From Escherichia phage AV125: a DNA stretch of 64,000 nt. The notes under the pieces are model-generated. The model did not search any database. It was given only the letters and a program-made list of their open reading frames with translations, and was not told where the DNA came from. Made by a program: the position numbers and the translations under genes. The stretch lies in sequence record OR352955.1. One strand, 5' to 3'. Shown here one piece after another: positions 1 to 62,021 of this stretch. Within the stretch, counting starts at the first letter, position 1; each line of letters starts with the position of its first letter.

Positions 1-1
1 T

Positions 2-313
2 CATGAAGGTAATTTTATTGAAAACTTAGACGATTATGATTTTTCTCCTAGCGCGGACGAACGGATCGCCCAGGATGTAACAGCCTTTATTAATGCTAAT
101 CTTGCCGCTATCTCTGAGGCAATGAGCGACGGCGCAACAGCCAACCAGATCGGGAATGATTTACATTTTACCCGTAACGGTCACGGCGTAGGCTTTTGGG
201 ATCGCCCTGAAATATACACCACTAACACGGCGAACCGCCTAACCAATGCAGCTAAGTTTATGCCGAACGTGTCGGCTTACATTGGTGAAGATAATTTGAT
301 TTATATTGAATAA
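2..313 (+). CDS. hypothetical protein, 3' portion (gene begins upstream of window)
   Basis: Reading frame is open from position 2 with no stop until 313; track ORF 122..313 is the tail of it. Confidence 0.5.
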   Translation, partial: HEGNFIENLDDYDFSPSADERIAQDVTAFINANLAAISEAMSDGATANQIGNDLHFTRNGHGVGFWDRPEIYTTNTANRLTNAAKFMPNVSAYIGEDNLIYIE

Positions 314-319
314 AAAGTA

Positions 320-347
320 TTGACACAGATCGCCAGTGTGCTAATAT
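320..347 (+). promoter_or_regulatory. sigma70-like early promoter (TTGACA-N16-TAATAT)
   Basis: TTGACA at 320-325, TAATAT at 342-347; followed by CCACGTAGGGC element shared with promoter at 1629. Confidence 0.55.
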
Positions 348-394
348 TTACCACGTAGGGCGGCAATGGTGCCGCCGATAATGAGGAAAGTAAA

Positions 395-694
395 ATGGAA
401 ACTATCGCTATTGTTACCGTAGAAAAACTGGTTGTTGGTGATGTATTCGCGTTAATGGTGCCTAACAGCAGCAAGCTGGGCGCTTATGAAGTAATGGATC
501 ATAAAAATGAATCATTTGGCGACGGTTGCACAATGGCGGTAAAATCTTTAAAGGATGGAATCATCCGCCAGGCTAACTGGCACAAAGGGAATCAAGTCGG
601 TTTAATATCAGCTAATTTCTTGCCAGAAGAGCAAACGTTAGACCAACTATCAGGCGGTAAGACGTTAGCCGAACTACTGGAAACAGCGATCTAA
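395..694 (+). CDS. hypothetical protein
   Basis: 99-aa ORF with GAGGAAAG RBS upstream; no recognisable motif. Confidence 0.55.
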   Translation: METIAIVTVEKLVVGDVFALMVPNSSKLGAYEVMDHKNESFGDGCTMAVKSLKDGIIRQANWHKGNQVGLISANFLPEEQTLDQLSGGKTLAELLETAI

Positions 695-738
695 TCAACA
701 AAGGGGCGGCAACGCCCCACATCAGAAAGGAAAAGATT

Positions 739-975
739 ATGAGTATTGCAACAGTATTAAACGCCGTTAAAACCGCTGAATCATCCGGCTTGCATGTTGA
801 GCTTATAGATCAACCAGGTGGCGATCTCCTTGTCCAGGTTTACCCGCCGAAAGTAGGGGATGATTATTATTGGGCTTATTCTGATACGTTCGAACAAGTA
901 GACACGAAAGCGATCACGGCTTTTATTTTAAAAGCTATTGAAGAAAATAACTTTCATCATAACATCAATCAATAA
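739..975 (+). CDS. hypothetical protein
   Basis: 78-aa ORF, RBS AAGGAAAAG; preceded and followed by GC hairpins (GGGGCGGCAACGCCCC, GCGGGGCGGTAACGCCCC). Confidence 0.55.
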   Translation: MSIATVLNAVKTAESSGLHVELIDQPGGDLLVQVYPPKVGDDYYWAYSDTFEQVDTKAITAFILKAIEENNFHHNINQ

Positions 976-1029
976 ACCATAAGCGGGGCGGTAACGCCCC
1001 ATTAAACGCAATAGGAAGAGGATAGACGC

Positions 1030-1320
1030 ATGAAAAAGATGATCGCAGTAGTTGCCCTGGTTGTTGGTATTAACGCGCCTGTACTGGCTAATGAGTTGCC
1101 AGAATCCATCACGCTAACCGATATCAACGCAATAAACCGGATCGGCGTTAATTATCGCCTATGCCTTGCCGCTAAAACTTTCCAGGACGGCACGACAGAA
1201 TACCACGGATTCGAGGGTATCCGCTGCGGTGAGCTTGCACGCGACCTTAAGGAAGATCCAGACCTTGAGGCCATACCGATGACCGTAAACGGTAAAGCTT
1301 ACGTAAACCGCCAACAATGA
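1030..1320 (+). CDS. secreted or periplasmic protein (N-terminal signal peptide)
   Basis: 96 aa; N-terminus MKKMIAVVALVVGINAPVLA is signal-peptide-like; RBS GGAAGAGG. Confidence 0.55.
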   Translation: MKKMIAVVALVVGINAPVLANELPESITLTDINAINRIGVNYRLCLAAKTFQDGTTEYHGFEGIRCGELARDLKEDPDLEAIPMTVNGKAYVNRQQ

Positions 1321-1451
1321 GAAAGGTAATCATCACAATGGGGATCATAGTAGCGACACTGGCGCTTATCCCCTTCATGGTTGAATATGTGCTGATCAGT
1401 GTTGTCCTGGTAGTCAGTGACCTATTGGAAACGGTTGGCAACTGGTTTTAA
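1317..1451 (+). CDS. small hydrophobic membrane protein (44 aa)
   Basis: ATG overlaps upstream stop (ATGA); translation MRKVIITMGIIVATLALIPFMVEYVLISVVLVVSDLLETVGNWF is one predicted TM segment; below track size cut-off. Confidence 0.4.
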   Translation: MRKVIITMGIIVATLALIPFMVEYVLISVVLVVSDLLETVGNWF

Positions 1452-1628
1452 AAATAAGAAAAACAGGACTTGTTTTTGTTCTGTTTTTTGTTATACTTAT
1501 TGAACGGGCGGCACCTGGAAGCAGGGGAAGATAATCACCGGAAGACCCCGCTATATATTGATAACTAACGCCTATCAAACAACAAAACATCAAAGGAATA
1601 AACTATCAAATCTTTACAATTCTACCTA

Positions 1629-1657
1629 TTGACACCGGATCACGCTTACACTATTAT
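1629..1657 (+). promoter_or_regulatory. sigma70-like early promoter (TTGACA-N17-TATTAT)
   Basis: TTGACA 1629-1634, TATTAT 1652-1657, then ATCACGTAGGGC; near-identical to promoter at 320. Confidence 0.6.
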
Positions 1658-1703
1658 TTATCACGTAGGGCAAACAATTTTAAACGGTAAACGAGGAATC
1701 ACC

Positions 1704-2087
1704 ATGAGCAATATCATCAACCTGGCAGCGACTGTAAACGGTAAAGACTTTAACGGCGCTGTAGACCGTGATCCTATGTGGTGCTTGTCAGTGTTTAAAG
1801 GCGATCTGGTTGAAGTTAGAACAACCGAAGGTTATAGCGATGATTATAAATGCGAGATTCATTTACATAATTGGTACACGGGTAAAACTTATGCGCTGAA
1901 TCACGCGTTTATCGGGAAAATTGAATATCGCGAGATGATCGACGATGAAACGGGGCAAGATTTTAGCGAAAACGTTTATATTCGTTCCGAGACATTAGCC
2001 GAACGTTTGATCGAGAAAATGAAAGCAAAAAATAAAATTAATTTATCTCATTGGATTGATATAACAAATGATCCGGCTTATCAGTAA
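1704..2087 (+). CDS. hypothetical protein
   Basis: Track ORF 1629..2087 would overlap the promoter; internal ATG at 1704 has RBS GAGGAA (MSNIINLAATVNGK...), 127 aa. Confidence 0.55.
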   Translation: MSNIINLAATVNGKDFNGAVDRDPMWCLSVFKGDLVEVRTTEGYSDDYKCEIHLHNWYTGKTYALNHAFIGKIEYREMIDDETGQDFSENVYIRSETLAERLIEKMKAKNKINLSHWIDITNDPAYQ

Positions 2088-2103
2088 ATAACATTTCATA
2101 CCA

Positions 2104-2130
2104 GGGCGCATCAAGCGCCCTTTCTTTTTG
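2104..2130 (+). terminator. rho-independent terminator
   Basis: GGGCGC-atcaa-GCGCCC hairpin followed by TTTCTTTTT. Confidence 0.7.
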
Positions 2131-2134
2131 CCCG

Positions 2135-3648
2135 AATAATGTTGATAGCTTTCGCCTATGAAAAACCGACACAGAACAAAACTGAATAAATCACGGTATC
2201 GAGCTAATCGACCATTAAACGAATAACCATACATCCCAGGGCAACAGGCTGTTAGAGAGCTATTTAGAGCGGTTAAAATCGATCAACAACCAACAACAAA
2301 CCATCAAAAACACCCTTTTACCTCTTTTCTAGTGCAATGATAACCATTATCATCTATCATTGATTATCTATTCAATATAAGTGCATAACTATAATGTTGA
2401 TAATAGTTCGCAACAACTAACCAACAAACAACATAAAACAATAAGCAAACTAATCATAATCAAAGGAATAATAGCAAGATGACTGATAACGACAAACAAT
2501 CAAACCATGATGAATATTAAACAAGATAACGATAACACGACAAAACAACCAACTAACGAACAATAACAAACGAAACCATTAAAAGATCAACTATTAGCAA
2601 AATAGTGTATATTGCCATAATAGTGACTGAATGAAATCATTACAAAACGAATCATTCCAAGGATCATCATTAGCACGCTACGCCGGACACGTAGCGAGCT
2701 AATAATAAGCCAACTACACCCCAACAATCATAACCATCGGTGATGGTTATTTCTTGTTACTGCGTAGCTTGCAATAATTGCAAGCGTAATGACGCTTACA
2801 CTTATTGCGCTGGCTTATTATTAGCATTATATGTAATTACTAAGATCATAACATTAGCGCAATAACAATAATCATTGTAATAGTTACAAGATGAGATCAT
2901 TAGCAAGATGAATAATTGCACGTAGCAACATGAGCGAATAGCGACAGGTTGCATAGTGTGCACATAGTGTATAAACATACAAGAAAATAAAGGCTAATCT
3001 TTTGGGGGCGAATACTATCGCTACGCGATATGTTGAGCACCTTCTCTTAAACGTAAATAAAATCAGAATAATCTTGATTTATTTTAGTTTTTATGTTAAT
3101 AAACGTTTAAATAATAATCATTCTCATATAAATAATAGTCTGCTTGTCATGAGCGGGATCAGTTGACAATGTTCCGTCATATGATGAAGTTGCCAAACCA
3201 TTGATAAATAAGTGTTTGTGTGATTTATAATCAAGTGGCCCACCTTGTCGCTACGTTGGTATGAGCCTTGCATAAGTCATTGAATACGAATGATAATTAT
3301 TCTCATTCGTATGATATTTGGGAATTGTCGCTGCGTGGACCTGACGGCCCGAAAATTCGCGTTAAGCACTTCTTACGTATGCGCCATGATTTTTGCCATA
3401 TGATATTGATTCTATTAGATATTCTTGCCATGATTGCCATGAAACAGGGTGTCCCGAAATAATCTCTCCCCGTAGATATTTTGGGTTACTTTTTATACAA
3501 GAGTGGGGTGTCAAAAATAATCGGTATATATAGGATAATTGATAGGAATCCCCTATGATAATTCGATTGTAATTCCCTAAGATTGATCGTATGATGTTGG
3601 TGATTGATGATTGCCATGAAAGATGGCTAACGATGAGAGGAGATTGTC
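2135..3648. other. 1.5-kb ORF-free region with strand compositional skew and short direct and inverted repeats
   Basis: No plausible ORF; 2280-2620 is A/C-rich and G-poor on the plus strand; recurring ATTAGC, TATGAT(A/G)TTG, GATTGCCATGAAA and GGGTGTC-N3-AAATAATC motifs; palindromes at about 2675-2705 and 3285-3325. Confidence 0.6.
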
Positions 3649-3993
3649 ATGCAAGAGAGTAAAAATGTTCCGTTGAGTAGTTTACGTCTAATGAAGTTTT
3701 ACAAAGCTTGGCTTGCTGGTGAGGTAGAAGGTCACACAACGAGTGGTTTGTGCATATGTTTGATTAAGTATGTAGAGGGAACATACCCTGATGAACTGTT
3801 ACCTCGTCTACAACAAGAGATGAAATCACAGTTTATTGGTGCAGGATTGGATTACAATTTCCCGTTTAATGAAGGTGGTTATGAGGAATACACCTTTGAA
3901 CATAAAAAACATATTTGCCATAAAAACAAACATCGTATACAATGGGTGCTAGATAGAATTCAAGATTATGAAGGAGAGAAAGATGACAAATAG
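3649..3993 (+). CDS. family A small protein (paralog 1 of 7)
   Basis: 114 aa; motifs FYKAWLAG, TSGLCICL, DYNFPFN, RIQWVLDRI shared with six other ORFs. Confidence 0.7.
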   Translation: MQESKNVPLSSLRLMKFYKAWLAGEVEGHTTSGLCICLIKYVEGTYPDELLPRLQQEMKSQFIGAGLDYNFPFNEGGYEEYTFEHKKHICHKNKHRIQWVLDRIQDYEGEKDDK

Positions 3994-4351
3994 TATTCCG
4001 TTGAGCAGTGCAACATTGCTTCGCTTCTATAAAGCATGGATTGCCAACTATCCTGCAATGAATCGCACAACGAGTGGCTTATGTGGTTGTCTGGTAGACT
4101 ATGTAGATGATTTTGTTGGTGATACACCTAGAGAAGAAGATAGAAAATGGCGTGATCATTTGTTGGACCGTTTGAAATATGAAATGAGGAAACAATTTAC
4201 ATGTGCAGGACTGGACTACAATCTTCCGTTCAATGCAGATTGCATGGATTACCTTTCAGAGTGTATAAACTTGGCGTGTCATACCAACACGTTACGTCTT
4301 CAGTGGGTGAAAGATCGGATTGAAGATGCAAATAATGCTTGCATTGAATAA
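3983..4351 (+). CDS. family A small protein (paralog 2 of 7)
   Basis: Start moved to ATG 3983 (RBS GGAGAG); FYKAWIAN, TSGLCGCL, DYNLPFN, RLQWVKDRI. Confidence 0.7.
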   Translation: MTNSIPLSSATLLRFYKAWIANYPAMNRTTSGLCGCLVDYVDDFVGDTPREEDRKWRDHLLDRLKYEMRKQFTCAGLDYNLPFNADCMDYLSECINLACHTNTLRLQWVKDRIEDANNACIE

Positions 4352-4400
4352 AGATGTTTGTATAATGGATGACATAACAGATAGCCAATGAGGAGATGAA

Positions 4401-5085: not shown

Positions 5086-5543
5086 GACAACCATCTATAC
5101 TGGAAGCGCATGTGCAATGTGTTGTAGATTATGTCAAAGAACACTCAAGTTTATTAAATGTAACCTGTGCAGTGCAAAATGATGTAGGCATTGTCTGTGT
5201 GCAACATATCTTATCTGAAACTCGTTATGAAGTATTTCGTGCCACGTTGTTTGGATGTGATCGAGTGCATGTAAACTTCCTGGACTCCAATTATCGTTAT
5301 GCTTTAGAAAATATTGATGATTATCTTCCTTGCTCTCCGACAGGATATGTAATGGTAACAGCAAACGAAGTAACACCAAGCAACAGTGAACGGGAAGCTT
5401 TGTTACGGAAGAAAATACGCCAACTGAAAATGCTGATGGAAATGCAAGAAGAGATTGAAAAAGAACTGAAAGAAGATTTTGGTATGCTTCCAAAAGACGC
5501 TTTGAAATGGTATGATGAACTAGGAGGAGAGAGCAATGTTTAA
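5082..5543 (+). CDS. hypothetical protein
   Basis: 153-aa ORF, start overlaps upstream stop; C-terminal charged coiled-coil-like segment. Confidence 0.55.
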   Translation: MRQPSILEAHVQCVVDYVKEHSSLLNVTCAVQNDVGIVCVQHILSETRYEVFRATLFGCDRVHVNFLDSNYRYALENIDDYLPCSPTGYVMVTANEVTPSNSEREALLRKKIRQLKMLMEMQEEIEKELKEDFGMLPKDALKWYDELGGESNV

Positions 5544-5994
5544 AGAAGGTCATGTCTACCGTTTCCAGGATGAGGATTATATGCGACTATATTCTACCTT
5601 TGATAACAGTATTGCGGCTATCATTGGAGAGAATTTTTTCGAGGTGTTGAGCACTGATGCAAATGGTAATATCTTGTCAATGGTTGTAATAGGTATGAGA
5701 GATGGTATTATCACTGCTGGTGATGGGGATCGTTACATAATCAATTCTGCTCATATAGATTATTTTGTTGACGGTGGTGTTCGTGGTGGTCGTGGAAAAC
5801 CCCAAGAAGAACCTGTTGATACAACAAAAGAAGAGTGGTATGTTGTAATGACTGATGACACCTGTATTTCTGGATTTGAAAGTTATGAAGAAGCTTTGAA
5901 AGAAGCAGCAGAGCATAAAATGGCTAATCCTACAGAAGAGGTTGAAGTTTATAAACGTATGGTTGTTGCTACCATCGGTGTATCTTTTGTTTAA
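5536..5994 (+). CDS. family B protein (tandem paralog 1 of 3)
   Basis: N-terminus MFKEGHVYRFQDED shared with next two genes (MFKVGFVYNFKSED, MFKANAVYCFKSKA); internal I(I/T)(E/A)AG motif. Confidence 0.6.
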   Translation: MFKEGHVYRFQDEDYMRLYSTFDNSIAAIIGENFFEVLSTDANGNILSMVVIGMRDGIITAGDGDRYIINSAHIDYFVDGGVRGGRGKPQEEPVDTTKEEWYVVMTDDTCISGFESYEEALKEAAEHKMANPTEEVEVYKRMVVATIGVSFV

Positions 5995-20844: not shown

Positions 20845-21075
20845 GTGTTAAATAAAATCGAAGAAGGTTGTATGGCATTTTTGGTAGATAACCCGTTTCC
20901 CTTTATGGTTAAGGTCCATGTAGGAGAGTATTTAGGTTATGACGAATGGGATTGTAGTATCAATAGTGAAATGCACCACTACCAACCAACAATACTTAAG
21001 ACGGATCAAATGGCGCGTATTACAGTAGAGGATGAATTGATCATTGAGTTATACGAGAGAGCACTACCCAAGTAA
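20845..21075 (+). CDS. hypothetical protein
   Basis: 76 aa, GTG start after RBS AGGAGG. Confidence 0.5.
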   Translation: MLNKIEEGCMAFLVDNPFPFMVKVHVGEYLGYDEWDCSINSEMHHYQPTILKTDQMARITVEDELIIELYERALPK

Positions 21076-21120
21076 GCTAGAACCCACCTAAATCGAACAG
21101 AGACGCTCTAAAATAGAAAA

Positions 21121-21149
21121 GGCACCCACTTGGGTGCCTTTGTTTTATT
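21121..21149. terminator. bidirectional terminator between convergent gene blocks
   Basis: GGCACCC-actt-GGGTGCC hairpin flanked by A-run upstream and T-run downstream; sits where the plus-strand block meets the minus-strand block. Confidence 0.7.
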
Positions 21150-21417
21150 CTTCGTTAGATTGCGTCTCAGACGCGTTAAATTCGGTTTCAGTACAACTTG
21201 CTAGGTAACTTATATTTTGCATCACTACAACTACAGGTGTTTGAAGTTTATCTTCTAGCCCCGCAGCCACTTGAGCCAAGGCATTATCAATATTTGATTT
21301 CCTAACGCCTGTTCCATGTCCTGTTGCCAAGTAAAGATTACCTTCCCCTTTTTGTGTAGCATTGGCAAAGTAGTAAACGTAATGTGCAAGGTAGTAATCA
21401 CGGATTTCTTCAGTCAT
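21145..21417 (-). CDS. hypothetical protein
   Basis: 90-aa ORF, last gene of minus-strand block. Confidence 0.5.
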   Translation of the reverse strand: MTEEIRDYYLAHYVYYFANATQKGEGNLYLATGHGTGVRKSNIDNALAQVAAGLEDKLQTPVVVVMQNISYLASCTETEFNASETQSNEE

Positions 21418-21437
21418 TTTATTCTCCTAATAAGAAA

Positions 21438-21451
21438 GGGGCCGAAGCCCC
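21438..21451 (-). repeat. intergenic UUCG-tetraloop hairpin (GGGGC-UUCG-GCCCC on transcript)
   Basis: GGGGCCGAAGCCCC; same element recurs at 33531 and 39698. Confidence 0.6.
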
Positions 21452-21460
21452 TTGAGTGGT

Positions 21461-22276
21461 TTATTTGTTTAAGTGGTCTTCGACCATTTTAATGAAACCT
21501 TCATTGCTGAAGGCTGTTGCAGCTTTTTCTCGGTAAACAAAAACTCCACGATCTTCATAGAGAAGTGTTTCTTCGTAATTAACTCCAGGGTTAACTACAA
21601 CCATTTTTGTACCCATACTAAGTGCAGGAAATAATTCCCAATTAAAATTGATAACTTGGTTTGAACATCCTACTACTACAACCAAATCTTGCATGGTCAA
21701 AGTATCGAACAAGTGAGCCATATCTGCATACAAAGGTGCAGCCTCACCAAAAAATACAACATTAGGCTTCACCCAGTTATAATCATCTATGTTTATACTA
21801 TTGTAACCAATATCTACCAGTGTTTTGTAATCTCCAGGATGCATACGGTAAACTACTTCAGGAAGATATCCGTGTACGTGAATAACAGAATCTCTGTCTA
21901 CACCTGCTCGCTCTAGCAGATCATCAACGTTTGTTGTCAAGTTTACTATTTGGTTAGGATATTCCTTAAACCACTTTGCTATTTGAATATGTGCAGCATT
22001 AGGTTGTACATCTTTAAGCTCAACACGTCTTTTGTTATAAAATTCGTGTGTTTTGGCATACAAATCCATACCGTTCTCGTCTACACCACCGACCACTGGA
22101 AGATCTGGAGATGTTCTAACACGATAACCTGCTTGGAAAGCTCCAATATCGCAGACCTCTTCTAAATCATATTCTTCCCATAAAGCACGACCACTATCTG
22201 TGTCTGTTCTAAATGTTCGAATCCCACTGTCTGCACTTAAACCTGCACCGCTTACAAAAATCACTCGTCTTGGCAT
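21461..22276 (-). CDS. Sir2-family (sirtuin-like) protein
   Basis: VIFVSGAGLSADSGIRTFR (sirtuin GAGIS-x-GIP-x-FR motif), HVHGYL, VVFFGE, VVVGCSNQV; lacks the Cys4 zinc module. Confidence 0.65.
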   Translation of the reverse strand: MPRRVIFVSGAGLSADSGIRTFRTDTDSGRALWEEYDLEEVCDIGAFQAGYRVRTSPDLPVVGGVDENGMDLYAKTHEFYNKRRVELKDVQPNAAHIQIAKWFKEYPNQIVNLTTNVDDLLERAGVDRDSVIHVHGYLPEVVYRMHPGDYKTLVDIGYNSINIDDYNWVKPNVVFFGEAAPLYADMAHLFDTLTMQDLVVVVGCSNQVINFNWELFPALSMGTKMVVVNPGVNYEETLLYEDRGVFVYREKAATAFSNEGFIKMVEDHLNK

Positions 22277-59894: not shown

Positions 59895-59966
59895 GGCCCT
59901 GTAGCTCAATGGGAGAGCTGTCGGCTCATAACCGATAGGTAGCTGGATCGAAACCAGCCAGGGCCA
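59895..59966 (+). tRNA. tRNA-Met (anticodon CAT; could also be Ile2 or initiator)
   Basis: Cloverleaf folded by hand: acceptor GGCCCTG/CAGGGCC, anticodon loop CTCATAA, T-loop ATCGAAA; CCA encoded. Confidence 0.8.
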
Positions 59967-59971
59967 CCAAA

Positions 59972-60043
59972 GTCTTTATGGTGTAATGGATAGCACAGGA
60001 GTCTTCTAAACTCTTAGTCAAGGTTCGATTCCTTGTAAAGACA
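59972..60043 (+). tRNA. tRNA-Arg (anticodon TCT)
   Basis: Acceptor GTCTTTA/TAAAGAC, anticodon loop CTTCTAA, T-arm CAAGG-TTCGATT-CCTTG; CCA encoded. Confidence 0.8.
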
Positions 60044-60242
60044 CCAGAACATTTTAACATGAATTAGCTCAAGTGATTTGAACCCACTACTGATCATGGT
60101 GGCAGAGAATGAGGCAAGTATGTCAGACATTATAAACAAAGGCCACGGTTATATTAGAAGACATAAATGCTCGAAGAGCACCGTTCGTGGAGAACGGGGG
60201 TTGGTGGAGTCACCATTCATGGTAAAATGTTTTAAAAAACTA

Positions 60243-60271
60243 TTGACAACAAACATTATTTTATGTTAGAT
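60243..60271 (+). promoter_or_regulatory. sigma70-like promoter within tRNA cluster
   Basis: TTGACA 60243-60248, 17-bp spacer, TTAGAT; 10 nt before tRNA-Ser. Confidence 0.55.
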
Positions 60272-60280
60272 TATAAGTAT

Positions 60281-60368
60281 GGAAGGGCAAATCGATGTGG
60301 CGACGAAAACGGTCTTGAAAACCGCCGAGCTTGAAAGAGCCTTGGGAGTTCGACTCTCCCTCCTTCCG
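60281..60368 (+). tRNA. tRNA-Ser (anticodon TGA), class II
   Basis: Acceptor GGAAGGG/TCCTTCC, anticodon loop CTTGAAA, long variable arm, T-arm GGGAG-TTCGACT-CTCCC; CCA encoded. Confidence 0.8.
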
Positions 60369-60376
60369 CCAGATTA

Positions 60377-60459
60377 GGTAGATTGGTGAAATGGTAGCCA
60401 CGACAGTTTGCTAAACTGTAGTCGGAAACGGCGTGTAGGTTCGAGTCCTACATCTACCG
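60377..60459 (+). tRNA. tRNA-Ser (anticodon GCT), class II
   Basis: Acceptor GGTAGAT/ATCTACC, anticodon stem ACAGT/ACTGT, loop TTGCTAA, variable arm with GAAA loop; CCA encoded. Confidence 0.8.
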
Positions 60460-60461
60460 CC

Positions 60462-60592
60462 AAGTTCTTTTTAATGTAGCTTACTTTAGCAGAGTAAATC
60501 TTCGGCAAGTGGCGGTAACCACTTTACCGATACCTCATAGTTAGTGGTGTGAACACTGGCTATTTTAAAAAGAATTTAAATATTAGTATTTA
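60462..60592 (+). ncRNA. candidate small RNA between tRNAs
   Basis: 131-nt spacer with no tRNA fold and no ORF; internal GTGG...CCAC complementarity; T4 carries small stable RNAs at the equivalent place. Confidence 0.3.
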
Positions 60593-60677
60593 GGTGAGTT
60601 AATTCCGTAGGGGTAGCGGGGCAGACTGTAAATCTGTTATCATTGCGATTCGGGTGGTTCGACTCCATCACTCACCA
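60593..60677 (+). tRNA. tRNA-Tyr (anticodon GTA), class II
   Basis: Closely parallels E. coli tRNA-Tyr: GCAGACTGTAAATCTG anticodon arm, long variable arm, acceptor GGTGAGT/ACTCACC; CCA encoded. Confidence 0.8.
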
Positions 60678-60686
60678 CCAAATTAA

Positions 60687-60769
60687 GATGAGTTGGCTGA
60701 ATGGTTTAAGCGGCGGACTGTTAATCCGTGTTCGAAAGAACAATATAGGTTCGAATCCTATACTCATCG
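60687..60769 (+). tRNA. class II-type tRNA with GTT (Asn) anticodon by loop geometry
   Basis: Perfect 7-bp acceptor GATGAGT/ACTCATC, T-arm ATAGG-TTCGAAT-CCTAT, 3-bp D-stem, 15-nt variable arm (GTTC-GAAA-GAAC), anticodon loop CTGTTAA closed by GCGGA/TCCGT. Confidence 0.5.
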
Positions 60770-60779
60770 CCAGAATTAT

Positions 60780-60856
60780 GGACTTGTAGAGTTAAGGTAA
60801 ACCCCCAGTCGCCAATAGGCTTCTGGAATTGCAGGTATCGAATCCTGCCGAGTCCC
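60780..60856 (+). pseudogene. tRNA-like element with aberrant anticodon arm
   Basis: 7-bp acceptor GGACTTG/CGAGTCC and T-arm GCAGG...TCGAAT...CCTGC present, but no canonical 5-bp/7-nt anticodon stem-loop and no CCA. Confidence 0.3.
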
Positions 60857-60862
60857 AGCATT

Positions 60863-60934
60863 GCTCCTATAGTATAATGGCTATTACAACGGTTTTGTAA
60901 TCCGTGGATCTCTGTTCGATTCAGTGTGGGAGCA
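60863..60934 (+). tRNA. tRNA-Thr (anticodon TGT)
   Basis: Acceptor GCTCCTA/TGGGAGC, anticodon loop TTTGTAA with a 4-bp stem, T-loop TTCGATT; CCA encoded. Confidence 0.65.
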
Positions 60935-60937
60935 CCA

Positions 60938-61200
60938 ACACAACATTAAGAGCACTGTGATTGATCGTCGTATCCTGTGCACAAGGTCTGCTCGAAAGAC
61001 AGTGTTCTTAGTATTGTGTTGATCACAAAAAGAGTCACCCGAAACTTGACCGGAGTAGGGTTGGATGGGGCAAAATGAGAAGCGGCTCTCCCATCGACAG
61101 CAACGAAGAATAATATTTGACTTTGGTTTTGTATTATTTTAAGTTAGCTTACCGAACGTAGGGCTAGTCACCCAACGGGATACTCGTCACTGTCCCAATC
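60938..61200 (+). ncRNA. candidate structured RNA or spacer within tRNA cluster
   Basis: About 260 nt without ORF or tRNA fold; CACTGTG ... ACAGTG and other inverted repeats. Confidence 0.25.
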
Positions 61201-61210
61201 AATAAAAGTC

Positions 61211-61240
61211 TTGACAACAAATAGTAAAATGTAGTATAGT
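61211..61240 (+). promoter_or_regulatory. sigma70-like promoter within tRNA cluster
   Basis: TTGACA 61211-61216, 18-bp spacer, TATAGT; 11 nt before tRNA-Gly. Confidence 0.55.
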
Positions 61241-61251
61241 AAATATATATG

Positions 61252-61322
61252 GCGTTCTTGGTGTAGCGGTAGCATTCCGTCCTTCCAAGTCGGCGGCACG
61301 AGTTCGATCCTCGTAGAACGCT
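61252..61322 (+). tRNA. tRNA-Gly (anticodon TCC)
   Basis: Acceptor GCGTTCT/AGAACGC, anticodon loop CTTCCAA, T-arm ACGAG-TTCGATC-CTCGT; CCA encoded; D-arm not cleanly resolved by hand. Confidence 0.65.
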
Positions 61323-61423
61323 CCAAATTATTTAATAAAGGGTTGCCAGAAAACTTTCTCTTTTACTCATGGTTTTCTCCTTCTCTCACACTTCTTCTGG
61401 TTGCCCTTCATTAAATGATTTAT

Positions 61424-61496
61424 TGGTTTGTAGTGTAGTCCGGTAGCACACGACACTTTGACTGTCGTAGGTTTGGTTCAAATCCAGACAGACCAG
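61424..61496 (+). tRNA. tRNA-Gln (anticodon TTG)
   Basis: U1-A72 acceptor TGGTTTG/CAGACCA, anticodon stem CGACA/TGTCG, loop CTTTGAC, T-loop TTCAAAT; CCA encoded. Confidence 0.8.
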
Positions 61497-61592
61497 CCAT
61501 ATAACAAAGGTGAGTCACTACCTTAAGTGTGAAGTTAAAAACGAGGAGCCGCCGAACACTTTCTTTTGCGGTGTACCTTTAGAATGTTATCA

Positions 61593-61666
61593 CGGGACGT
61601 AGCACAGCTTGGTAGTGCGCTCGCTTTGGGAGCGAGAGGTCGAGTGTTCGAATCACTCCGTCCCGA
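61593..61666 (+). tRNA. tRNA-Pro (anticodon TGG)
   Basis: C1-G72 acceptor CGGGACG/CGTCCCG as in E. coli tRNA-Pro, D-stem GCAC/GTGC, anticodon stem CTCGC/GCGAG, loop TTTGGGA; CCA encoded. Confidence 0.85.
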
Positions 61667-61675
61667 CCAATTAAA

Positions 61676-61746
61676 TGTTTCGTAGTTCAATGGTAGAACC
61701 CACGACTGATAATCGTGAGACACAAGTTCGATTCTTGTCGAAACAA
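61676..61746 (+). tRNA. tRNA-Ile (anticodon GAT)
   Basis: Acceptor TGTTTCG/CGAAACA, D-stem GTTC/GAAC, anticodon stem CACGA/TCGTG, loop CTGATAA; CCA encoded. Confidence 0.8.
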
Positions 61747-61751
61747 CCAGT

Positions 61752-61821
61752 TTCCCGTTAGACTTACAGGATAAGAGTTCCACAGCTTATTGTGATGCTG
61801 GTTCGAATCCAGCACGGGATA
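61752..61821 (+). pseudogene. tRNA-like element with non-canonical anticodon region
   Basis: Acceptor TTCCCGT/ACGGGAT (6 of 7 pairs) and perfect T-arm GCTGG-TTCGAAT-CCAGC, but the central region only forms ATAAG/CTTAT with a 10-nt loop; no CCA. Confidence 0.3.
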
Positions 61822-61827
61822 CATAAT

Positions 61828-61903
61828 AGCGGGATAGAGGAGTCTGGTCGTCCTCGCCAGTTTCATATGCTGGAGATCATCGGTTCAAATCCGATTCCCG
61901 CCT
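61828..61903 (+). tRNA. tRNA with CAT anticodon (Met or Ile2), A1-C72 acceptor mismatch
   Basis: Anticodon stem CCAGT/GCTGG, loop TTCATAT, T-arm ATCGG-TTCAAAT-CCGAT, acceptor AGCGGGA/TCCCGCC; CCA encoded. Confidence 0.65.
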
Positions 61904-62021
61904 CCAAATATCGCTTGCCAGCGGTATCTTTGAAGACCTTGCCTGGTTCCTTCTAAGATGGAGGGGTGCGACTCCTTAACGCACAATTATAATAAAGCAT
62001 TTCAACTTAACAGTATTTACT

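Follow-up and report, generated by a model that had tools for sequence, protein, structure and literature searches.

A probable concatemer junction with a direct terminal repeat in the gene-free stretch of a phAPEC8-like coliphage

Introduction

What might a large, gene-dense phage keep in 1.5 kb of DNA that carries no gene? This question is raised by positions 2135-3648 of a 64,000-nucleotide stretch of Escherichia phage AV125 (OR352955.1), which is called the window below. A first-pass annotation, made from the letters alone, had offered three answers: a replication origin with iterons, a set of regulator binding sites, or a long non-coding or leader RNA. Comparison with related phages suggests another one. 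The stretch is very likely a concatemer junction, in which both physical ends of the linear virion DNA are joined head to tail, with a direct terminal repeat (DTR) between a right subterminal segment and a left-end leader. Regulator sites and a leader were retained as components of this junction, whereas its main identity, a physical genome end with a DTR, had been missed.

Genome ends and the direct terminal repeat

Database sequence comparison showed that window positions 1600-4400 share 95-97% identity with phAPEC8-like coliphage genomes. By sequence, the source is a Phapecoctavirus, a phAPEC8-like myovirus of about 150 kb in the subfamily Stephanstirmvirinae. The records of its relatives often begin or end inside the stretch, repeatedly at bases aligned to window 3036 or 3363/3364. 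In three records (Schickermooser, Mt1B1_P17, and 3A1), the first base aligns to window 3036. Exact repeats occur at both record ends of Schickermooser (329 bp) and Mt1B1_P17 (328 bp), and stop at window 3364 and 3363, respectively. The phi92 record (FR775895.2) carries annotated left and right repeats of 343 bp. When the phi92 junction was rebuilt, both DTR boundaries aligned to the base with the window, between 3035 and 3036 and between 3364 and 3365. Since the record-end repeats of the relatives and the annotated phi92 boundaries align there, window 3036-3364 was assigned as the DTR. Its sequence occurs once in the 64-kb window.

Published data agree with this placement. The terminal repeat of Schickermooser was reported as 328 bp (Korf et al. 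2019, PMC6563267), repeats of 342 bp were published for the phi92-like phage BME3 by PhageTerm, and a 2025 paper describes members of the Stephanstirmvirinae as ending in direct terminal repeats. Terminal repeats at the genome ends are a known feature of the subfamily. The published papers on 3A1 and Sichuanvirus gave no information on termini.

The start of the FKP3 record (PP895363.1, locus L018) contains an exact 317-bp duplication (2062-2378 and 2562-2878). It probably arose during assembly, as an artefact of the terminal repeat, and was excluded from the analysis.

Cut-site motifs

Both DTR boundaries read GTT(G/A)^AGCAC, where ^ marks the boundary. The 9-mer GTTRAGCAC occurs three times in 64 kb (0.8 expected), and two of these copies are the DTR boundaries. 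The remaining one, an exact match (GTTGAGCAC), lies at 5646-5654, inside the open reading frame (ORF) 5536-5994. Across all loci, the two members of the GTTR^AGCAC pair are spaced by 329, 330-331, or 342-343 nt, which equals the repeat length reported for each lineage. The linear record of Klebsiella phage phi1_175008, which is independent, ends with ...GAAAATCGCGTT, exactly where the right cut is predicted; its TGTTG^AGC lies 343 nt before this point.

The right cut has a longer conserved context, GAAAATYCGCGTTA^AGCAC, and the records of Schickermooser, P17, BI-EHEC, WPEC1/6, and phi1_175008 end there. The left cut is preceded by a G-run and a short hairpin. This module recurs in other lineages, with a hairpin that differs in sequence yet stays self-complementary (CCGCC/GGCGG, AACCCT/AGGGTT, and CACGC/GCGTG). 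In some lineages, the left module (hairpin and TGTTG^AGC) is present in two to three tandem copies. The Klebsiella phages have two or three modules with a 67-69-nt period (1913/1980/2049 in L018; 1845/1912 in L020), and muut has two modules 24 nt apart (3556/3580 in L004). The coordinates of all the features are collected in Table 1.

Table 1. Features assigned or predicted in and beside the gene-free stretch (window coordinates).
Feature	Position	Strand	Size	Remarks
Intrinsic terminator	2103-2130	+		GC-rich 7-bp stem and T-run; closes the right-most gene block
Right subterminal segment, non-coding	2135-3035		900 bp	Part 1 of the probable junction
Conserved right-end block	2135-2335	n/a		Includes GGTATCGAGCTAATC and the inverted repeat TGATAG-N7-CTATGA (2143-2161)
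G-depleted, CAA-rich, unstructured tract	2280-2620	+		Composition, fold z-score
Palindrome 1, TGATAACCATTATCA	2338-2352	n/a		Fur 7-1-7-like, 1 mismatch; syntenic in all lineages including Av-05
Five ATTAGC units	2593, 2669, 2820, 2853, 2899 (2593-2904)	+		Two are arms of the folded element
Folded multi-helix element	2662-2833	no strand preference	~170 nt	RNAalifold on both strands
H1	2676-2682/2690-2696			Hairpin preceding the three-arm junction
Closing stem	2698-2712/2811-2825		15 bp	Encloses P2, H2, H3, and H5
P2	2714-2717/2764-2767			Inside closing stem
H2	2731-2738/2742-2749			Inside closing stem
H3	2768-2774/2778-2784			Inside closing stem
H5	2785-2791/2803-2809			Inside closing stem
Left cut-site module	3000-3035	+		G-run TTTTGGGGGCG 3000-3010; hairpin TATCGC-TAC-GCGATA 3016-3030; TGTTG 3031-3035
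Direct terminal repeat, one collapsed copy	3036-3364	n/a	329 bp	Repeats of relatives, phi92 annotation
Palindrome 2, TAATAATCATTCTCA	3112-3126	n/a		Perfect TGATAATCATTATCA in phi92-like phages
IHF-consensus site TATCAATGGTTTG	3194-3206	-		Exact centre of the DTR, between palindromes 2 and 3
Palindrome 3, TGATAATTATTCTCA	3291-3305	n/a		Inside the DTR
Right cut-site motif GAAAATTCGCGTTA^AGCAC	3351-3369	+		Kept in all lineages
Left-end leader	3365-3648	+	284 bp	Part 3 of the probable junction
Candidate sigma-70-type promoters	3434-3463, 3494-3521, 3567-3595	+		Consensus matches only
Ribosome-binding site GAGAGGAGA	3635-3643	+		Precedes the first gene, ATG at 3649

Palindromes and the IHF-type site

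The DTR has a conserved internal layout, consisting of a palindrome, an IHF-type site, and a second palindrome. The 15-bp palindromes have the form TGAnAATnATTnTCA; two of them lie inside the DTR, and one lies to its left. Three of the five TGAnAATnATTnTCA-type matches (at most 2 mismatches) in 64 kb fall in the region, where 0.85 would be expected. All three are syntenic in every lineage, and the leftmost is shared even with Av-05, which belongs to another subfamily. The IHF-type site matches WATCAANNNNTTR and was found in 19 of 20 lineages. Its WATCAA and TTR parts are invariant while the N4 spacer is variable, and conservation is confined to the consensus positions. Its offsets within the DTR are 165/329, 176/343, and 176/344. 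The earlier proposal of regulator binding sites thus holds in part: the conserved palindromes, the IHF-type site, and the ATTAGC units described below are predicted components of the junction. The string TATAAATA at 3127-3134, inside the DTR, is identical to the T4 late-promoter consensus; the segment that contains it is deleted in Justusliebigvirus.

The palindromes resemble the binding unit of the host regulator Fur. The E. coli Fur box is a 19-bp sequence, GATAATGATAATCATTATC, with a 7-1-7 unit, TGATAATnATTATCA. As Fur sites, the palindromes might render early transcription or end processing iron-responsive, or might titrate Fur as genome copies rise. The 7-1-7 unit is matched with 1-2 mismatches in the window and with none in the phi92-like phages. 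The best match to the 19-bp consensus is only 15/19 in the window, and it reaches 17/19 in the DTRs of the phi92-like phages and phiWec188, and 16/19 in one relative (L027). Elsewhere in the 64-kb window, as in four unrelated background loci, no match reached 16/19. The region contains six matches of at least 14/19, against 0.24 in shuffles, and several overlap -10-like hexamers. However, a search for the full 19-bp consensus with at most 3 mismatches found none in the window. AT-rich palindromes could equally suit a phage-encoded dimeric DNA-binding protein, and their position, flanking the IHF site between the two cut sites, suggests a packaging role. Known Fur boxes overlap iron-regulated promoters of the host or of prophages (such as sitABCD), whereas the predicted sites lie in the terminal region of a lytic phage; no paper on Fur boxes in lytic-phage termini was found in the literature searched. 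Binding by Fur is therefore regarded as possible but with low confidence, and the lead was kept because of the 7-1-7 unit and the matches in the relatives.

The folded element

A folded element with several helices sits about 200-370 bp left of the DTR. The alignment comprised 20-22 distinct copies, from four phage lineages and from metagenomic variants found by an invariant core pattern. In this alignment, pairing is kept in 98% of the cells, and both partners change in 15 pairs, which are spread over 4 helices. This level of covariation was reached in none of 500 shuffles, and slid registers gave at most 5 pairs. Five versions of the closing stem, each perfectly complementary, are found among the copies. 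Two lineages have unrelated hairpins inserted at one site of the element. Its fold z-score relative to shuffles is -7.2 on the plus strand and -8.7 on the minus strand. Both palindromes named in the first-pass annotation exist, and they correspond to stems H1 and H3 of the covarying structure.

The element was found only in this phage group. Exact-pattern scans identified 4 viral loci and 7 genuine metagenomic loci, with no genuine genome match. Four loci (L029, L032, L038, and L039) were rejected as chance matches in coding DNA, and a protein-anchored IMG/VR search gave only 2 loci. The covariance model found a single copy in the window (196 bits), and none in Av-05 or in the IMG/VR locus L027. 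Among Rfam families, at gathering and permissive thresholds, only tRNAs passed in the window; the best score in the region was 20.9 bits, against a threshold of 100.

Is this element a gene for a structured RNA? A non-coding RNA of about 170 nt might be made from its own transcript or from a longer right-end transcript, and might serve in packaging, anti-defence, or regulation. The multi-helix fold with a three-arm junction and 15 covarying pairs is consistent with this, as are the lineage-specific hairpin insertions at one site, which are typical of structured RNAs. In three lineages, a -10-like box (AATCAT/TATAAT/AATAAT) also precedes H1 by about 10 nt. As no Rfam family matched, such an RNA would form a new family. 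However, no promoter or terminator was found at a conserved distance around the element across the divergent lineages. The wobble cells (6 on the plus strand and 13 on the minus strand) derive from very few events and favour neither strand. Most loops are 3 nt long and cap perfect palindromes, as is more usual for inverted repeats in DNA, and recurrent template switching at quasi-palindromes could also maintain the complementarity of the arms. A stand-alone small RNA gene is considered unlikely, because there is no conserved promoter or terminator and the wobble pairs assign no strand. The long non-coding RNA of the earlier proposal may thus be confined to the folded element, where it is conceivable but rather doubtful. 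A DNA-level structure, single-stranded or cruciform, is slightly favoured, because of the lack of strand preference, the lack of a conserved promoter or terminator, and the 3-nt loops on perfect palindromes.

The segment left of the repeat

The right-most gene block is closed by an intrinsic terminator, whose stem and T-run are kept in all genera with a variable loop. The conserved right-end block that follows shares about 75% identity with Justusliebigvirus and 68% with Av-05 (Vequintavirinae), although it is non-coding. Av-05 has a 1.9-kb unannotated gap (L040, 2927-4845), which has only the Fur-like palindrome and this left part (window 2104-2426) in common with the stretch; it lacks the folded element as well as the GTTRAGC motif.

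The next part is the G-poor tract at 2280-2620. The strand skew that had been pointed out is real (A 48%, C 20.5%, and G 9%), and the G content is the lowest of all 300-nt windows in the 64 kb (mean 18.7%). The reported CAACAA units were also recovered: there are 5 copies, where local dinucleotide shuffles give 1.0 (P=0.002). AACAA occurs 12 times against 4.0 in the same shuffles, and ATCATT likewise exceeds them. The poverty in G (3-10%) is kept in all lineages, whereas neither the sequence of the tract nor its richness in A/C or A/T is. The tract is unstructured as RNA (fold z-score -0.34), and C minus G reaches 20 per 78 nt, which is in the top 3% of the window. Together with the low G content, these properties agree with the criteria for a rut-like tract, which call for at least 80 nt of G-poor, unstructured RNA with more C than G on the transcribed strand, and the tract fits the compositional description of a Rho-loading site.

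Two other explanations of the tract were rejected. An Hfq (ARN)n or CrcZ-like sponge was dropped, because the longest run of 5 equals the 95th percentile of the shuffles and the A/C-rich sequence is not kept in Justusliebigvirus. A degenerate 128-nt tandem repeat (repeat family D2) was dropped because only the CAA-rich heads align. These heads (2284-2312, 2410-2440, and 2538-2575) are about 128 nt apart, and the intervening sequence is unrelated. At the right border, an 18-25-nt segment (2604-2628) is bounded by AATAGTG direct repeats. It is also present in a few relatives, and absent from phAPEC8, ZCKP1, and others. Its presence gives rise to TTGCCA-17-AATCAT with TG, which scores highest among the sigma-70-like matches of the region.

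The ATTAGC family that had been noticed in the centre is strongly clustered. YATTAGCR has five copies on the same strand within 314 nt (2592-2905), where local shuffles give 0.11, and eight copies on both strands in the remaining 62 kb. Units of ATTAGCA(AGC) flank the folded element in every lineage.

These features bear on the proposed replication origin. An origin within 2135-3035 might be unwound at the AT-rich asymmetric tract, with the ATTAGC units as iterons, and be primed through an R-loop by the folded element or by a leftward G-rich transcript; it could coexist with a terminal-repeat function. Positions 2001-4000 are the lowest-GC 2 kb of the window (0.354), and 2301-2600 has a GC content of 0.29 and is unstructured. 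The clustering and conservation of the ATTAGC units, the proximity of an IHF-type site, and the presence of a strongly folded element also speak for an origin. As judged from the composition, a leftward RNA over the tract would have more G than C, which would favour R-loops. On the other hand, no DnaA boxes and no tandem array were found. At least three evenly spaced direct repeats of about 17-22 bp would be expected of iterons, whereas the ATTAGC units are 6-10 nt long and lie at uneven distances of 76, 151, 33, and 46 nt. No initiator gene is evident alongside, the neighbours being small hypotheticals, and the tract sequence is not conserved between genera. The GC skew, a check of which had been suggested, shows no switch in the region; the large-scale skew flips at about 21 kb together with gene orientation, and the local dip merely reflects the G-poor tract. 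An origin is considered unlikely, and the iteron version of the first-pass annotation found no support.

The skew sign changes at about 21000-22000 and 58000 of the window presumably mark switches of gene orientation between large blocks. Elsewhere in the window, a cluster of 10-11 tRNA genes lies on the plus strand at 59895-61906. One of these, at 60593-60677, has an Rfam match of 39 bits and is not called by ARAGORN.

The leader and the non-coding status of the stretch

A leader had been among the earlier proposals, and it stands as a component of the concatemer junction rather than as its identity: 284 nt of predicted leader precede the first gene. The block 3473-3551 within it is conserved across genera. 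The three sigma-70-like matches contain the TTGCCA, AATAAT, and TATGAT units that had been listed among the repeats.

Most of the repeat families first noted coincide with the signals described here, and two of them had been overcounted. The other repeat families right of the centre were recovered to different degrees. The two exact copies of GATTGCCATGAAA exist, and the second one is absent from phiWec188 and ZCKP1. Four TATGAT(A/G)TTG units had been counted; two are exact (3399 and 3590), and the other two are partial, TATGATGAAG at 3180 and TATGATATTT at 3310. One copy of GGGTGTC-N3-AAATAATC was found as described, while the supposed second copy has a 2-nt spacer.

Weak or lineage-specific units of this kind, such as the second GATTGCCATGAAA copy and the twice-occurring TATGATRTTG, would be expected if the stretch were a tolerated, functionless spacer whose repeats are by-products of low-complexity composition. 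However, the stretch keeps 90-99% identity within the genus, with conserved islands in other genera and another subfamily, and it also shows covariation and motif enrichment above local shuffles. The conservation and covariation data contradict a spacer, which is extremely improbable. The stretch is a real, conserved, and functional non-coding region. As a query, the 1.5-kb gap alone matched 134 phage records, 55 of them with at least 80% coverage.

The absence of a credible ORF, as originally described, was confirmed: the longest is 64 aa with a TTG start. A PHROG search of eight small ORFs in the stretch gave no match, and the indels among eight relatives showed no triplet bias (34% were multiples of 3). 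A coding role was dropped on these two grounds. The gap, with the last gene of the right end on one side and the first gene of the left end on the other, is left unannotated in the records of phAPEC8, ASO2A, and ESCO13. In those of ETEC-TG, WPEC1/6, EP57, PaulScherrer, FKP3, and phi1_175008, 2-9 small "hypothetical proteins" were automatically annotated across it, including the folded element; these are probably false gene calls.

Gene content left of the gap (window 1-2087) differs among the relatives, where the matches are split into 2-4 pieces of differing lengths. Synteny is better kept in the non-coding region than in this part. Several records labelled as Campylobacter, Acinetobacter, Pseudomonas, or Serratia phages share about 89-96% identity with the region (about 72% for the phi92-like ones). 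Mislabelled hosts or mixed samples might explain this.

Points against the concatemer junction

Several observations weigh against the assignment of the stretch as a concatemer junction with two defined ends. The window contains only one, collapsed copy of the DTR, and the ends of its phage are read from the relatives. The start of the 3A1 record may have been copied from a reference. In the Klebsiella phages, the central position of the IHF-type site requires that the innermost of the tandem cut-site modules is the real cut. Taken alone, the IHF pattern is no commoner in the window than chance would have it (9 occurrences, 7.4 expected); the evidence for this site lies in its position and its conservation pattern. 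The promoter-like matches are likewise at chance level (16 against 14.3), and the leader promoters are thus candidates only. Finally, it is by analogy that roles are suggested for the palindromes, the G-poor tract, and the folded element. The junction remains very likely with these points taken into account.

Comparison with known systems

The closest known systems are the DTRs of phi92 (343 bp) and Schickermooser (328 bp). They are homologous to the DTR of the window phage, occupy the same genomic place, have base-aligned boundaries, and share the GTT(G/A)^AGC motif. There is no difference in kind, and the ends of the window phage are placed by homology to them. The sources for these two phages give the repeat length only, without internal sites, cut motif, or folded element. 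The literature searched contained no account of the covarying element, the cut motif, or the palindrome/IHF layout, and both the folded element and the internal DTR layout seem to be undescribed so far.

T7 has short-repeat families around its terminal repeat, and host-polymerase promoters just inside its left end. The region studied here may be compared with it by analogy, as it combines a short terminal repeat, surrounding short-repeat families, a hairpin, and candidate promoters inside the left end. However, there is no sequence similarity, the phage is a 150-kb myovirus, and palindromes and an IHF-type site lie within the repeat. The T7 signals also depend on T7 RNA polymerase; to our knowledge, this phage group is not known to encode such an enzyme.

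In lambda, the cosB region has terminase-binding R sites around the IHF site I1, beside the cosN cut site. The similarity would be a site for a host bending protein that is flanked by repeats near terminase cuts; here, the sites are predicted and their spacings are about 80-100 bp. Lambda has 12-nt cohesive ends without a terminal repeat, and its R sites are not Fur-like palindromes. T5 has an ORF-free, repeat-rich region beside its long terminal repeat, which was proposed as an injection stop signal. The stretch studied here may be analogous, as it too lacks genes, contains repeats and palindromes, and borders on a terminal repeat. There is no sequence relation, and the T5 repeat is about 10 kb and serves a two-step transfer.

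Proposed mechanism and significance

A model of how the junction might work can be proposed. In replicative concatemers, IHF would bend the DTR at its centre, and dimeric proteins, either a phage small-terminase-like protein or host Fur, would bind the two palindromes inside it. The bend might bring both cut sites together, each about 164 bp away, and these would be nicked on opposite strands. The DTR would then be duplicated by strand-displacement synthesis, as in T7-type processing. Because of this duplication, each packaged genome would start with AGCAC... and end with ...CGCGTTA. The G-run and hairpin at the left cut, together with the folded element, may act as DNA-level signals, single-stranded or cruciform, in processing or priming. 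The terminator and the G-poor, rut-like tract might stop transcription of the right-end genes short of the junction. After injection, host RNA polymerase would start at the leader promoters.

T7-type concatemer processing must duplicate the terminal repeat, and a DNA hairpin intermediate is involved (PMC4281155). This makes a role of the folded element, about 210 bp from the DTR, plausible. Together, the folded element and the DTR layout might form cis-acting machinery, not described before, by which large myoviruses make short terminal repeats. The duplication would be primed or guided by a folded nucleic acid, either single-stranded DNA or RNA, and IHF, perhaps with Fur, would be co-opted so that one terminase assembly makes both cuts. 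This proposal is tentative, and its probability is considered low.

The placement of the genome ends of the window phage at 3036 and 3364, predicted by homology, may be useful for annotation, since the records of many relatives start at an arbitrary position or carry spurious small ORFs here. For the Stephanstirmvirinae, it also suggests a rule by which DTR boundaries may be predicted: a pair of GTTR^AGC(A/C) motifs about 330-345 bp apart. The recognition, cutting, and duplication of short terminal repeats are understood mechanistically only for T7-like podoviruses. The cut motif, the hairpin at the left cut, the central IHF-type site, the Fur-like palindromes, and the folded element would offer mutable targets for the study of this process in therapeutically used coliphages.

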